From: a virus
DNA length: 64,000 nucleotides
IMG/VR virus record: IMGVR_UViG_3300036832_001295
Coordinates: 21,709 to 85,708 of that record
Strand: one strand, 5' to 3'
In this document: piece after piece, positions 12,854 through 16,587 of the stretch
Position numbering within the stretch: the stretch's first letter is position 1
Layout: the number at the start of each line of letters is the position of its first letter
Program-made: the position numbers and the translations under genes
Notes under the pieces: model-generated
The model's input: only the letters and a program-made list of their open reading frames with translations
The model's database searches: none
Told to the model about the DNA's origin: nothing

Positions 12854-13249
12854 GGCAGGGCTTGGTTCGGCACGGTTCGGCACGGCAGGGCTGGGCAGGC
12901 ACGGCAAGGCTGGGCCCGTCGAGGTTCGGCGTGGCAAGGCCCGGCAGGCCAGGCAGGGTGTGGCACGGCACGTCGTGGCGGGGTTCGGCAGGGCTGGGCA
13001 GGCAAGGCGAGGCACGGCATGGCACGGCCTGGCGCGGCCGGGCAGGCAAGGCGTGGATGGCCCGGCGGGACGTGGCAAGGCGGGGCAGGCACGGCTTGGT
13101 TGGGCACGGCAGGGCTAGGTTCGGCATGGCGGGGCAGGCAGGGCTTGGTGCGGCCAGGCGCGGTTGGGGTTGGCGCGGTGCGGCGGGGCAGGCGTGGCAC
13201 GGCTTGTCATGGCTGGGCAGGGCTGGTCTTGGCGCGGCGTGGCAGGCTG
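12854..13249 (+). repeat. GGY-NN pentamer array, block 1 (8 units, putative guide RNAs)
   Basis: 5-nt periodic GGC/GGT plus 2 variable nt, with units closed by a 4-nt GGCA. Confidence 0.9.
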
Positions 13250-13291
13250 TGCCGAACAGGTCAAACGGTGATCTGGTTAGGGGGAATCGGG

Positions 13292-13738
13292 ATGAAGATT
13301 CATACGCTGTTGGCGTTGGCCGCGGCCGGGGTGTGCACCGCCGGAATGGTGGTCTTCGCGGCACCGGCCTCGGCGGCGCAGTCGGAGTTGACCCTCAACT
13401 GCACCGGCCTCGGCATGGTGACGGTGGCGACCAACAACAACAACTCATCCGAGCACGGTGGTTGGGGCGCGGCGCAGACCGTGAACATTCCCGGGCACGG
13501 TATCGCGACCTCGTTCTCCGGCACGATTACCGACCTGGTGACCGGCACCAGCGTGAGCTTCACCCAGGTCAAGGGCAACGGCAACGCCAACCAGAACACC
13601 ACCGGGCAACCCACCATGTGCTCACAGACGATCACCGGCACGGTGGTCGACTTCACCGGGGGGTTCATCCCGCCGGGCATGTCGGGCTCTGACCCGGCCA
13701 CCTTCATGCTCACGGTGGGCGTGATTTACAAGGCCTGA
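13292..13738 (+). CDS. Secreted protein inserted within the array
   Basis: MKIHTLLALAAAGVCTAGMVVFAAPASA signal peptide, 148 aa, two Cys in the mature part, normal codon usage unlike the flanks. Confidence 0.8.
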   Translation: MKIHTLLALAAAGVCTAGMVVFAAPASAAQSELTLNCTGLGMVTVATNNNNSSEHGGWGAAQTVNIPGHGIATSFSGTITDLVTGTSVSFTQVKGNGNANQNTTGQPTMCSQTITGTVVDFTGGFIPPGMSGSDPATFMLTVGVIYKA

Positions 13739-13741
13739 CTC

Positions 13742-16587
13742 GGCAGGCAGGGCTTGGCGGGGCATGGTTCGGCGCGGCATGGCACGGTGTGGCAGCCAGG
13801 GCACGGCGCGGCACGGCACGGCCTGGCTCGGCGCGGCAGGCGCGGCGCGGCGCGGCGGGGTCGGGCCCGGCCTGGTGCGGCGAGACATGGCGCGGCGAGG
13901 CAGGCATGGTGTGGCTCGGCCTGGCTCGGCAAGGCAGGGCAGGCACGGCATGGTTGGGCTCGGCGCGGTTGGGCGTCGCAGGGCTTGGCAGGCAGGGCGA
14001 GGTGTGGCGGGTCCAGGCATGGCGCGGCAGGCATGGCCCGGCGCGGCTCGGTACGGCAAGGTGGGGCGTGGCAGGCGGGGTTGGGTTCGGTTTGGCATGG
14101 CGCGGTTGGGCACGGCACGGCTCGGCAGGCGTGGCTTGGCGTGTCGAGGCGGGGCTGGGTTCGCTGGGCCAGGCGGGGCAGGGCAGGCGTGGCTGGGCGG
14201 GTTCCGGCAAGGCAAGGCATGGCCAGGCAGGCACGGCCCGGTTCGGTATGGCACGTCGTGGCCAGACTTGGCTTGGCAGGCGTGGCTTGGTGTGGCACGG
14301 CCGGGTCAGGCACGGTTGGGCGCGGCAGGCTCGGCGAGGCGTGTCATGGCAAGGCTCGGCTAGGTAGGGCACGGCAGCCGAGGCCTGGTGAGGCAGGGCA
14401 ACGCGAGGCATGGCTAGGCCCGGCAGTCGGGGCGTGGCATGACCCGGTGTGGCAGGTCACGGCAAGGCGTGGCGCGGCAGGCACGGCTAGGTCGGGCGCG
14501 GATCGGCGTGGCATGGCGTGGCAGCTAAGGCGCGGCGGGGCACGGCACGGCTGGCTAGGCAAGGCTCGGCCCGGTGCGGCATGGCAGGTCAGGGCAGGCG
14601 TGGCAGGGTGCGGCAGGGTCAGGCGCGGCAGGGCTAGGCGGGGCTTGGCAGGCAAACGTGGTTTAGCTGGGCCCGGCGTGCCGGGGCACGGTGGGGCGTG
14701 GCAGGCAGAGCAAGGCTCGGCTTGGTTCGGCGTGGCATGGCAGGCAGGGCTAGGCAAGGTATGACAAGGCTGGGTGCGGCATGGCGTGGCTGGCATTCGT
14801 GGTTTGGCTGGGCGGGCCGCGGCGGGGCAGGCAAGGCATGGCTTGGCATCGCATGGTGTGGCTCGGCTAGGCGCGGCAGGGCAGGCAGGCGAGGCCGGGC
14901 AGGCAGGGCTGGATTCGGCCGGGCATGGCTTGGCGCGGTTTGGCAGGCAAGGCAGGCATGGTGAGGCACGGCAGGGCACGGCGCGGCTAGGCGCGGCAGG
15001 CGAGGCAGGGCCCGGCTAGTCCAGGTGCGGCGGGTCGCGGCCGGGTTCGGCAGGGCAGGCTCGGTTGGGCTGGGCGGGGCGTGGTTTGGCAAGGCAGGGT
15101 TGGGCACGGCAGGCAGGCAGGGCGTGGTTGGGCTCGGGCGGCTGGGCACGGCAGGGCAGGCACGGCGGGTCCGGGCGAGGCTCGGCAAGGTCCGGCCTGG
15201 CGGGGTAGGGCCTGGCAGGCGAGGCGGGGTGTGGCGGGGCCTGGCGGGTCAAGGCACGTCATGGCGCGGCAGGCATGGCGAGGCAGGGCTTGGTCCGGCA
15301 GGGCACGTCCCGGCTTGGCTTGGCAGGCTCGGCCAGGCGCGGTTGGGCGAGGCATGGCAAGGCAGGGCTCGGCCAGGCAGGCATGGCCCGGCGAGACCCG
15401 GCTCGGCTCGGTGCGGCATGGCGCGGCATGGCAGGCAGGGCGCGGCGCGGCCAGGCGAGGCCGGGCTTGGCTCGGTCCGGCCTGGCGAGGCGAGGCAGGC
15501 ATGGCCCGGTATGGCACGGTGCGGCACGTCCCGGCGTGGTATGGCAGCCGAGGCCCGGCTTAGCGTGGCAGGTCTTGGCGAGGCCTGGTGTGGCACGGCA
15601 AGGCAGGGCGTGGCAGGCATCGCGTGGTGTGGCACGGCCCGGTGGGGCACGGCTTGGCAGGCATCGCACGGCGCGGCATGGCAGGTCGAGGCAAAGCCTG
15701 GCGGGCACGGCAGGCATGGCCCGGTCCGGTTCGGCACCGCACGGCGGGGCATGGCAGGCATGGTTCGGCTTGGCGTGGTGTGGTGGGGCACGGCAGGGCA
15801 CGGCAGGCAGGGCTCGGCGTGGTTCGGCACGGCACGGTGTGGCGTGGCTTGGCGGGCAGGGCTCGGCCGGGTTGGGTACGGCGTGGTCAGGCGAGGCGCG
15901 GCGCGGTGTGGCAGGCAGGGCTCGGTACGGCGGGGCATGGCAGGGTGTGGCTAGGCCCGGCGGGCATGGCATGGCGCGGCAAGTCCAGGCGAGGCGCGGC
16001 GAGGCGTGGCGAGGCGAGGCGAGGCAGGCAAGGCAAGGTCGGGCAGGGCACGGTATGGCCCGGTGTGGTTGGCATGGCGCGGCATGGCAGGCAGGGCGCG
16101 GCAGGCTGGGCTCGGCACGGCTAGGCGCGGCTCGGCAAGGCGTGGTGGGGCAGCCGGGGCTGGGCGAGTTGGGCATGGCCGGGCGCGGCGTGGCAGTCCA
16201 GGCAGGGCAGGACGAGGCAGGGCTAGGCGCGGCTTGGCAGGGCAGGCTTGGCCCGGCGGGGCATGGTTGGGCTAGTCAAGGTCGGGCATGGCAGGCAGGG
16301 CAGGGCTTGGCCCGGCAACGCAGGGCTTGGCCCGGCGCGGCAGGCACGGCAGGGTTAGGCGGGGCGGGGTCCGGCTAGGCCTGGCAGGCAAGGCGGGGCA
16401 GGTCCCGGCTTGGTTGGGCACGGCTCGGCGCGGCAGGCGTGGCAGAGTTCGGCGAGGCTAGGCGTGGCAAGGCCCGGCTAGGCAGCCACGGCGGGGCCTG
16501 GCCAGGCATGGCAAGGTGAGGTGCGGCGCGGCATGGCAGGCGTGGCTTGGCGTGGCACCGTGTGGCCACGCGTGGCACGGCACGGCA
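13742..16587 (+). repeat. GGY-NN pentamer array, block 2 (~56 units plus a few truncated ones, putative guide RNAs)
   Basis: Same grammar as block 1 over 2.85 kb; units of ~7-13 pentamers; no unit seen twice. Confidence 0.9.

Follow-up and report, generated by a model that had tools for sequence, protein, structure and literature searches.

VIPR is a CRISPR-like phage weapon that was first described in 2026 (10.64898/2026.04.26.720920), and the accessible text of the structural report on it states that Vipr protomers hold each GGY of the guide and expose the NN bases for guiding (10.64898/2026.04.26.720927). In the structures of the Vipr protein from Escherichia phage SUSP1, residues H17, R138, D177, W178 and R179 contact G1, G2 and Y3 (10.64898/2026.04.26.720927). 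The type II system of this phage has four vrRNAs of ~100 nt, all of which end in an invariable 3' tail and carry a pseudoknot cap. According to the available sections of the first report, published guides contain 9-16 repeats and in nature are directed against satellites, prophages and other VIPR systems (10.64898/2026.04.26.720920). The same report mentions 'staggered' arrays, in which consecutive vrRNAs overlap by 1 nt (10.64898/2026.04.26.720920, fig. S18 legend); according to its text, small-RNA sequencing confirmed other architectures but not the staggered arrays (10.64898/2026.04.26.720920). As the available parts of the VIPR papers point out, Class 1 CRISPR systems share the underlying principle, since in Cas7 on crRNA, too, a RAMP protein polymerises on a guide and its thumbs flip out bases at a fixed period.

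The window analysed here is a stretch of 64,000 nt of viral DNA (IMG/VR record IMGVR_UViG_3300036832_001295, positions 21,709 to 85,708). It contains a locus that is very probably the guide-RNA array of a phage VIPR system, in which an operon of vipr, a partial vap paralogue and vap is followed by 3.2 kb of guide DNA on the same strand. The locus is a large further example of an already known kind and has the following features.

11295..11942, plus strand: vipr, encoding a stand-alone RAMP-family protein of 215 aa (ribosome-binding site, GC3, PDB sequence match)
11939..12307, plus strand: partial vap paralogue, 122 aa, whose product has an N-terminal HPLYDRFxW stretch in common with the product of 12304..12759
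12304..12759, plus strand: vap-like vipr-accessory gene, 151 aa, conserved after vipr
12763..12846, plus strand: pair of stable hairpins in the gap that separates the vap stop codon from the array (RNA folding)
12854..13245, plus strand: vrRNA array A, 72 pentamers and 8 four-mers, 7 of them GGCA (parse)
13292..13738, plus strand: small gene, 148 aa, with a signal-peptide-like N terminus (open frame, hydrophobic leader at its start)
13741..16590, plus strand: vrRNA array B, 515 pentamers and 68 four-mers, 59 of them GGCA (parse)
16584..16610, plus strand: hairpin closing the array and adjoining a convergent minus-strand operon (RNA folding)

The start codon of vipr, an ATG, is preceded by an AGGAGG ribosome-binding site, and GC3 climbs to 0.93-1.0 from about position 11331. 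A PDB sequence search with the product returned entry 36pp, 'SUSP1 Vipr protein' (E 7e-7), and a profile of 34 Vipr sequences matched the same entry with an E value of 1.2e-8. The alignment covers profile residues 57-196, the N-terminal half being without significant alignment, and places E190-W191-R192 on SUSP1 D177-W178-R179 and R151 on R138; these residues are invariant among the 34 relatives. H32 pairs with SUSP1 H17 only inside a stretch of non-significant alignment. Judged by these alignments, the product of 11295-11942 is homologous to SUSP1 Vipr, the structure of which is solved, and 1968 of 2321 candidates are relatives of the family at E<=0.001. The vap-like product matches phrog_15946 (2.9e-22), and its relatives lie directly 3' of vipr in 124 of the 146 loci anchored on Vipr relatives; it has no sequence match in Pfam, NCBIfam or the PDB and no detectable tie to anything solved, and a search of viral contigs with the single vap sequence returned no relatives. 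The product of the partial paralogue matches nothing in Pfam, PHROG or NCBIfam. The product of the small gene at 13292..13738 likewise has no match in these three collections and no relative in the fetched loci, and the gene probably lies outside the VIPR system. Searches of NCBIfam, Pfam, PHROG and the PDB thus assign no function to vap, its paralogue or the inserted gene.

The guide DNA begins 95 nt past the last stop codon of the vipr operon and has a two-level grammar. By dynamic programming, the two arrays (12854-13245 and 13741-16590, plus strand) parse into 663 units, namely 587 GGY-NN pentamers and 76 four-mers, with no six-mer needed. The four-mers are GGCA (66), GGCG (4), GGCT (2), GGTT (2), GGAT (1) and GGGC (1), which bears out the original prediction of a 5-nt GGY-NN period delimited by GGCA and occasionally by GGCT or GGCG; a parse from anchors yielded 56 GGCA, 9 GGCG, 3 GGCT and no GGCC. 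The rarer triplets that had been named were all found (GTC 23, CGC 9, GCC 7, GAC 7, AGC 4). The original prediction further described the NN positions as highly variable next to a nearly fixed triplet, and among the 477 clean pentamers of the anchor parse the entropy is 0 bits at each G, 0.62-0.71 bits at Y and 1.87-1.95 bits at each N; the outcome that would have refuted it, NN entropy at or below the level of the triplet, was not observed. Array B alone contains 31 different clean pentamers and all 16 NN dinucleotides. An unbroken GGCNN run of nine units occurs once in the window and in none of 100 shuffles. The arrays had been taken for one continuous tract from 12854 to 16587, which has to be corrected, as 13246-13740 is ordinary sequence that holds the small gene and splits array A from array B. 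Both ends of the guide DNA are flanked by predicted RNA structure: the region 12760-12860 folds at -57.7 kcal/mol (z -4.9) and the region 16560-16640 at -43.8 kcal/mol (z -3.5), each equalled by 0 of 200 shuffles, and the hairpin at 16584..16610 may act as a terminator. Outside the two arrays, the rest of the 85.7-kb contig contains only three runs of 5-7 units, which we take as chance. Among the listed sequencing runs, 11295-13300 was found in one soil-metagenome DNA run, possibly the source sample, and in no RNA run.

The breaks divide the arrays into 78 blocks (76 closed, 2 open-ended) rather than the roughly 65 units originally estimated. With block size counted in units including the closing four-mer, 44 of the 76 closed blocks contain 9-11 units, which corresponds to 44, 49 or 54 nt, and array A, for example, runs through blocks of 9, 10, 11, 9, 3, 6, 10, 11 and 11 units. 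The expected range of about 7-13 pentamers holds for the majority, as 54 of the 76 closed blocks have 8-13 units, whereas breaks placed at random 5000 times produced 16.8 such blocks on average and never more than 32; it fails for 21 blocks of only 1-7 units, five of which are a lone GGCA. These short blocks are too short to look like working guides. No repeat occurs among the 54 long blocks, as had been noticed for the units in general, and the best pair has 13 of 16 NN bases in common. The array is taken from this parse to hold at least 54 distinct guides. An array of this size could serve as a test bed for how tail-less guides are measured and released.

In its layout the locus resembles the staggered arrays as far as the available text describes them. 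A Vipr homologue adjoins a same-strand GGY/NN array, a vap-like gene is present, no tail lies between guides, and one base is common to consecutive guides, which makes the end of each guide mark the start of its successor, as a 4-nt GGCA followed by GGC would give. On this DNA-level evidence we assign the array to the 'staggered' class of vrRNA arrays; compared with the published class it is very large, with 78 blocks over 3.2 kb. The string GGCA is absent from the main text of both 10.64898/2026.04.26.720920 and 10.64898/2026.10.15.759431, of which the former's fig. S18 and data S4 may show the junction and the clade. Compared with the type II system of SUSP1, as described in the accessible sections, the locus shares the homologous protein with its G-loop motif GVG-[DE]-WRP and thumb arginine, the 5-nt GGY/NN repeats at 9-16 per guide, a range into which the guide length of this locus falls, and the one-base-skip reading on codon positions 1-2. 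The conserved, pseudoknotted tail of ~40 nt that characterises type II is absent here: blocks of ~49 nt abut through the 4-nt unit, and an Rfam search (E<=1) found no family on array B and no ribozyme, its two chance-level matches lying on the hairpin only. The locus also differs from Class 1 CRISPR, with a period of 5 and 2 pairing bases, whereas CRISPR has a period of 6 and 5 pairing bases. It is phage-borne and lacks direct repeats of CRISPR length (tens of nt between unique spacers), Tandem Repeats Finder having reported periods of 5k or 5k+4 only (61-100% match) and no long repeat that is conserved, and no Cas family was matched among the 11 ORFs scanned around the array with Pfam, PHROG and NCBIfam.

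Inferred from the SUSP1 structures, one Vipr protomer would bind each 5-nt repeat, and neighbouring protomers would lock away G, G and Y while leaving the two N bases exposed. The exposed NN would pair with double-stranded target DNA, every third target base being skipped, and a block of ~9 pentamers would read positions 1-2 of ~9 codons. The view of the tract as a fixed scaffold carrying information, which the original prediction put forward, is supported by the adjoining Vipr homologue, in which the G- and Y-binding residues are kept, and by three blocks that decode in frame to protein motifs of real genes. These were decoded by matching the NN bases to DNA with one base skipped, following the published rule, and they do not form a random sample because they were picked for motif-like decodings.

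15218..15271, plus strand: guide block decoding to SNF2 motif I, read sense (one-base-skip matches)
15326..15379, plus strand: guide block decoding to the first strand of a TIR domain, read antisense (one-base-skip match)
15380..15433, plus strand: guide block decoding to a motif like the G1 box of GHKL ATPases, read antisense (one-base-skip matches)

All three match protein motifs in frame with 90-95% of their NN bases, exceeding the target-match cut-off of 80% of NN given in the available part of the VIPR paper (10.64898/2026.04.26.720920), and each match lies within one block. For some guides, these decodings suggest that conserved motifs of anti-phage defence genes are the targets. In the full form of this reading, the phage would carry more than 50 tail-less guides of ~49 nt, part of which would be directed not against rival phages but against host defence genes at their most conserved catalytic motifs. 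These would be SNF2 motif I in the helicases DrmD (DISARM), DpdE (Dpd) and Hma, and the first TIR strand in effectors of the Thoeris-like kind. We put it forward as a tentative and rather doubtful proposal. The other possibility is that a working VIPR array is directed only against rival phages, prophages and satellites, and that the defence motifs are matched by chance or via genes riding on such elements; this is a serious contender that comes near to being probable, and it agrees with the natural targets published so far, as listed in the available text.

The SNF2 guide speaks against targeting of mobile elements only. With up to 2 mismatches it has 27 matches in 22 of 151 genomes, compared with 2 for the reversed control, and all 12 fetched matches lie in frame at the same motif, AD[DEG]VGLGKTIE. 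Four of the five scanned target ORFs contain an SNF2-related domain, the fifth (120 aa) being without a Pfam match, and the four long ORFs score best in PADLOC as DrmD (3.4e-296 and 4.4e-173), DpdE (1.5e-262) and HmaC (5.6e-159). The TIR guide matches only once, with 2 mismatches, among 401 genomes (0 for the control), which also argues for defence targeting, as it reads in frame as WDVFISHASE exactly at the start of a TIR_2 domain (6.8e-18), in a protein that scores as PDC-S66 (3.9e-61) and ThsB (3.3e-37). The G1-box block is the weakest of the three decodings and favours the alternative, since its near matches are sensor-kinase-type and AMP-binding proteins rather than defence genes: of the 4 matches with 2 mismatches that it has among 151 genomes (1 for the control), three are in frame within the HATPase_c domain of large sensor proteins (two also with HisKA or DUF4118) and the fourth lies in an AMP-binding enzyme.

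Broader searches are also on the side of the alternative, as they returned no exact target and placed no second guide in the defence neighbourhoods. The exact patterns of 15218-15271 and 15326-15379 both have 0 occurrences in viral contigs; the latter occurs twice in metagenome contigs, both times in an identical sequence whose frame is not gene-like, and this is roughly the number that we estimate for chance. When all long guides were searched in the fetched loci, first 1.7 Mb and later 3.5 Mb, as well as in the phage itself, the best matches equalled those of shuffled guides and no self-target was found. A search of 57 guides against 20 defence-gene neighbourhoods, with the two selecting guides excluded, gave 8 matches at <=2 mismatches, compared with 4-12 in ten shuffles. 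Should some guides nevertheless be aimed at defence motifs, a single one could silence entire gene families in different hosts, since wobble bases go unread in this code, which would amount to an RNA-guided broad-spectrum counter-defence, and the one-base overlap at GGCA would be what lets so many guides fit. The array could also serve as a test bed for phages aiming VIPR at host immunity, a question that the near matches alone raise.

The relatives of the locus bear on the meaning of GGCA. GGY-NN arrays are present in 116 of the 146 loci anchored on Vipr relatives, all on the vipr strand except one run of 53 nt. Conversely, when loci were collected by nothing but the DNA pattern, tblastn detected a Vipr relative in 54 of 120. 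Across 156 other arrays, GGCA accounts for 591 of 777 breaks and the modal block has 10-11 units. Together with the peaked unit length in the window and the 1-nt overlap given in the fig. S18 legend of the published work, this upholds the proposed role of GGCA as a delimiter, and the motif is shown at the level of sequence to be the junction between the putative guides. The locus and the 156 related arrays provide a quantitative rule for the staggered architecture that is usable for automatic guide calling: blocks meet at GGCA, most often contain 10-11 units (9-10 pentamers and the closing four-mer) and are strictly linked to the vipr strand.

Taken as GGCAG and GGCNN with one common G, the junction gives the 1-nt overlap of the published 'staggered' arrays. 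The base lost at GGCA would put the next repeat out of register, so that the filament could not continue. The conserved A of GGCA suggests in addition a sequence-specific cut or cap, by which the precursor would be resolved into guides of ~49 nt lacking a 3' tail of the SUSP1 type. Alternatively, GGCA in a VIPR array may be a mere register break at which filaments end and non-specific host RNases trim, with no sequence-specific cleavage or capping. Other four-mers do occur at the breaks (10 of 76 here, 186 of 777 elsewhere), and some related arrays use GGCG, CGCA, CGCC or GGCC throughout; therefore the lost base would matter more than the identity of the base. We nonetheless regard a mere register break as unlikely, given that the A is kept at 66 of 76 breaks here and at 591 of 777 elsewhere, though among the pentamers with a final G in the anchor parse GGCAG (35) stands beside GGCGG (19), GGCTG (8) and GGCCG (7). 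The unit after the break is biased as well, with A at N4 in 36 of 58 blocks of the window and in 312 of 708 in the other arrays, compared with 32% overall. We infer that GGCA may be cut, capped or both, in line with the candidate processing or filament-capping signal of the original prediction.

Neutral or structural simple-sequence DNA without guide function, be it a slippage microsatellite, a tract that forms G-quadruplexes or i-motifs, or buffer DNA separating convergent operons, is very improbable. The tract does lie between convergent operons with a strong GC skew (0.29-0.33), and a scan for sigma-70-like promoters found 0 sites. Against this, the NN bases come close to the maximal entropy, block lengths form a sharp peak, and neither homogenisation nor a repeated block is seen. 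The tract is also linked to the Vipr gene, strand included, in most Vipr-anchored loci, and its blocks decode in frame to real protein motifs. The slippage microsatellite, which the original prediction had also discounted, was accordingly rejected on the varied NN and the lack of repeated blocks. A protein-coding repeat region, in which 15 nt would give a five-residue repeat, can be set aside almost entirely: the scarcity of stop codons in the tract leaves long frames open on both strands, but the frame changes by 1 nt about every 49 nt, 76 times in all, openness in six frames is as composition predicts, and no ORF inside array B has coding-like GC3, whereas the flanking genes pass the same simple test. 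G-quadruplex DNA, an RNA track for a ring-shaped RNA-binding protein and a Rho-loading buffer, the ideas considered at first, were dropped after the Vipr homology was found.

With regard to the wider genome, a megablast search of the flank 16600-20700 against phage records gave no match, and the 39 loci carrying relatives of the portal gene have no such array within the fetched DNA (<=10 kb per side). Sharing of guides with other phages is at shuffle level for all guides except one. This guide, which starts at 14655, has an almost identical counterpart in another phage at locus L163, with 17 of 18 NN bases in common, and L163 is also the one searched locus that contains a relative of the partial vap paralogue at 11939..12307.

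The window appears to hold a genuine locus of VIPR, a CRISPR-like phage weapon, with a staggered guide array of the kind published in 2026, and this assignment is well supported. At the level of sequence, the array grammar, a Vipr homologue with conserved contact residues, a conserved partner gene, strand linkage and in-frame near matches of guides are demonstrated. As published, VIPR consists of a RAMP protein, Vipr, and guide RNAs (vrRNAs) of 9-16 YNNGG repeats, whose NN pair with the target while one base, mostly wobble, is skipped (10.64898/2026.04.26.720920; 10.64898/2026.04.26.720927), and rival mobile elements are silenced at transcription (10.64898/2026.04.26.720920). 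Several array architectures are described there, including 'staggered arrays with overlapping vrRNAs', for which the legend states that vrRNAs come from positions with a 1-nt overlap; small-RNA sequencing confirmed the ribozyme and single-guide architectures, staggered arrays not being included (10.64898/2026.04.26.720920). The features of the locus and its surroundings are as follows.

10134-11102, minus strand: endolysin-like gene (family matches)
11295-11942, plus strand: vipr
11939-12307, plus strand: 122-aa gene between vipr and vap
12304-12759, plus strand: vap-like (vipr-accessory) gene
12763-12846: stable hairpins upstream of the array (fold z -4.9)
12854-13245, plus strand: 5-nt-rhythm tract A, strict period
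13292-13738, plus strand: small gene (148 aa, signal-peptide-like N terminus), open frame inside the array
13741-16590, plus strand: 5-nt-rhythm tract B, strict period
16584-16610: stable hairpin at the array end (fold z -3.5)
16797-17591, minus strand: endolysin-like gene (family matches)
17842-20667, minus strand: portal gene (phrog_2833, 8.8e-140)

In a plain anchor parse, the 477 clean GGY-NN pentamers had zero entropy at both G positions, 0.62-0.71 bits at Y and 1.87-1.95 bits at each N, the NN positions thus being more variable than the triplet. When unit lengths of 4, 5 or 6 nt were permitted in a dynamic-programming parse, the whole tract was accounted for by 587 pentamers and 76 four-mers, without any six-mers, and 66 of the 76 four-mers were GGCA, confirming the original prediction of a 5-nt array with GGCA delimiters. 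Block lengths between breaks are non-geometric: 44 of 76 closed blocks contain 9-11 units, and 54 contain 8-13, whereas placing the breaks at random 5000 times gave 16.8 such blocks on average and 32 at most. Of the closed blocks, 21 are short, and 78 blocks were counted instead of the predicted number of about 65. Each long block is distinct, as predicted, the closest pair having 13/16 NN bases in common. The first N (N4) is A more often in units right after a break than in other units, here in 36 of 58 blocks. Rather than forming a single array at 12854-16587, the repeats are divided into 392 nt and 2850 nt by a 496-nt ordinary stretch holding gene 13292-13738, which has no match in Pfam, PHROG or NCBIfam and no relative among the other fetched loci; possibly it is a moron that entered the array.

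GGCA followed by GGC constitutes a 1-nt overlap of the staggered type, since GGCAG and GGCNN have one G in common, as do neighbouring vrRNAs in the published staggered arrays. 'GGCA' itself is absent from the main text of 10.64898/2026.04.26.720920 and 10.64898/2026.10.15.759431.

The array grammar is a trait of the family. Runs of nine GGCNN units occur in at least 120 stretches of viral contigs; among the 120 matches listed, 82 loci have arrays and 54 encode a Vipr relative (tblastn). Conversely, 146 loci anchored on Vipr relatives were fetched (66 from genomes, plus 80 retained out of 563 from viral contigs); GGY-NN arrays occur in 116 of them, always on the vipr strand apart from a single 53-nt run. 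Across 156 distinct arrays of these loci, GGCA makes up 591 of 777 four-mers, block length peaks at 10-11 units, and post-break N4 is A in 312 of 708 cases versus 32% overall. Some viral arrays (loci L048, L094, L068, L085, L158, L224; L144, L131, L154, L063/L075) either have the junctions GGCG, CGCA, CGCC or GGCC or are divided by short non-repeat spacers instead of the one-base overlap; these may represent other VIPR architectures. With ~3.2 kb in total (rank 2 among 147 loci), the window array is among the largest of the loci examined, compared with ~3.7 kb in L172 and 1.4 kb in the closest relative, L163. L172 (IMGVR_UViG_3300043313_001352, locus 8699-12676) is from a related phage with a 58% identical Vipr, and its array lies in six pieces with many shorter blocks between vipr and vap, not after vap.

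The gene at 11295-11942 encodes a Vipr homologue whose contact residues are conserved. It starts at an ATG with an AGGAGG site. A longer ORF, 10611-11942, was rejected as a by-product of the endolysin gene on the other strand, and GC3 becomes coding-like near 11331. The 215-aa product has no match in Pfam or NCBIfam and matches PDB 36pp, 'SUSP1 Vipr protein' of an Escherichia phage, at E 7e-7 in a sequence search; with a profile built from 34 relatives the match improves to 1.2e-8 and covers positions 57-196. In the profile alignment, E190-W191-R192 and R151, invariant across the 34 relatives, correspond to SUSP1 D177-W178-R179 and R138, which the structure paper describes as gripping G1, G2 and Y3 of every repeat (10.64898/2026.04.26.720927). 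In 124 of the 146 Vipr-anchored loci, a relative of the vap-like gene comes after vipr. Gene 11939-12307 shares with it only an N-terminal HPLYDRFxW stretch, has a relative in L163 only among the fetched loci, and probably arose when part of the accessory gene was duplicated.

The source contig is an IMG/VR virus of 85.7 kb, estimated to be 62% complete, and a soil metagenome is the origin of the DNA or an additional place where it is present. The genes surrounding the array are phage genes. The tracts sit between two convergent operons, of which the plus-strand one ends at 12759 and the minus-strand one at 16613. The very stable hairpins on either side may delimit the array transcript; those upstream could terminate or attenuate transcription after vap, and the downstream one could be a terminator that the array shares with the convergent operon. 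The two flanking endolysin-like genes are separate, one GH19/chitinase-like and the other with a peptidoglycan-binding domain. The host is likely an actinobacterium, because the nearest cellular Vipr relatives are from Actinomycetota (Gordonia, Kribbellaceae, Micromonosporaceae; 57-60% identity).

By analogy with the published system, the array would be transcribed from the vipr strand, each pentamer would be bound by one Vipr protomer, the NN would pair with DNA by the one-base-skip rule, and guide binding would silence transcription. We further propose that the base lost at GGCA would shift the next GGY out of register and thereby stop the filament, setting guide length at ~9 pentamers. The conserved A and the biased unit that follows suggest that GGCA marks a sequence-specific cut or cap and is more than a bare register break.

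Three blocks, selected because decoding suggested motifs, were searched against genomes as NN pairs with a free base between them (at most two mismatches), with the reversed pattern as the control. A near match yields a similar peptide by construction; what counts as evidence is solely that the match lies in frame within a genuine gene of the family. Block 15218-15271 matched 27 sites, spread over 22 of 151 genomes, versus 2 control matches; the 12 sites that were fetched all read in frame as AD[DEG]VGLGKTIE, and 4 of 5 ORFs scanned contain an SNF2-related domain. The four long ORFs score in PADLOC as DrmD (3.4e-296 and 4.4e-173), DpdE (1.5e-262) and HmaC (5.6e-159). The fifth (120 aa; 1249-1608 of locus L313, G471:C1) has no Pfam match and holds the sole 1-mismatch match; it may come from a helicase gene that is broken or read in the wrong frame. 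Block 15326-15379 gave one match in 401 genomes versus none in the control, in frame as WDVFISHASE, the first residues of the TIR domain of a protein scoring as PDC-S66 and ThsB. Block 15380-15433 gave 4 matches versus 1; three fall in large sensor proteins, within their HATPase_c domain, and the other in an AMP-binding enzyme. None of these is a defence gene, and this case is weak. No exact target was found for the guides in these searches, and all-guide scans of the fetched DNA gave matches at the shuffled-guide level. What adds to the text of the VIPR papers is this near matching of guides to defence-gene motifs, seen in genomes other than the host's. The three blocks are adjacent or almost so, and their motifs are unrelated, with every match confined to a single block, which fits GGCA as a boundary of information units.

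The guide at 14655 is nearly identical in L163 (locus 10172-10270; 17/18 NN bases), and the adjoining L163 block is similar to the TIR guide from 15326 (14/18 NN bases). The remaining guides of the two arrays all differ, suggesting fast guide turnover.
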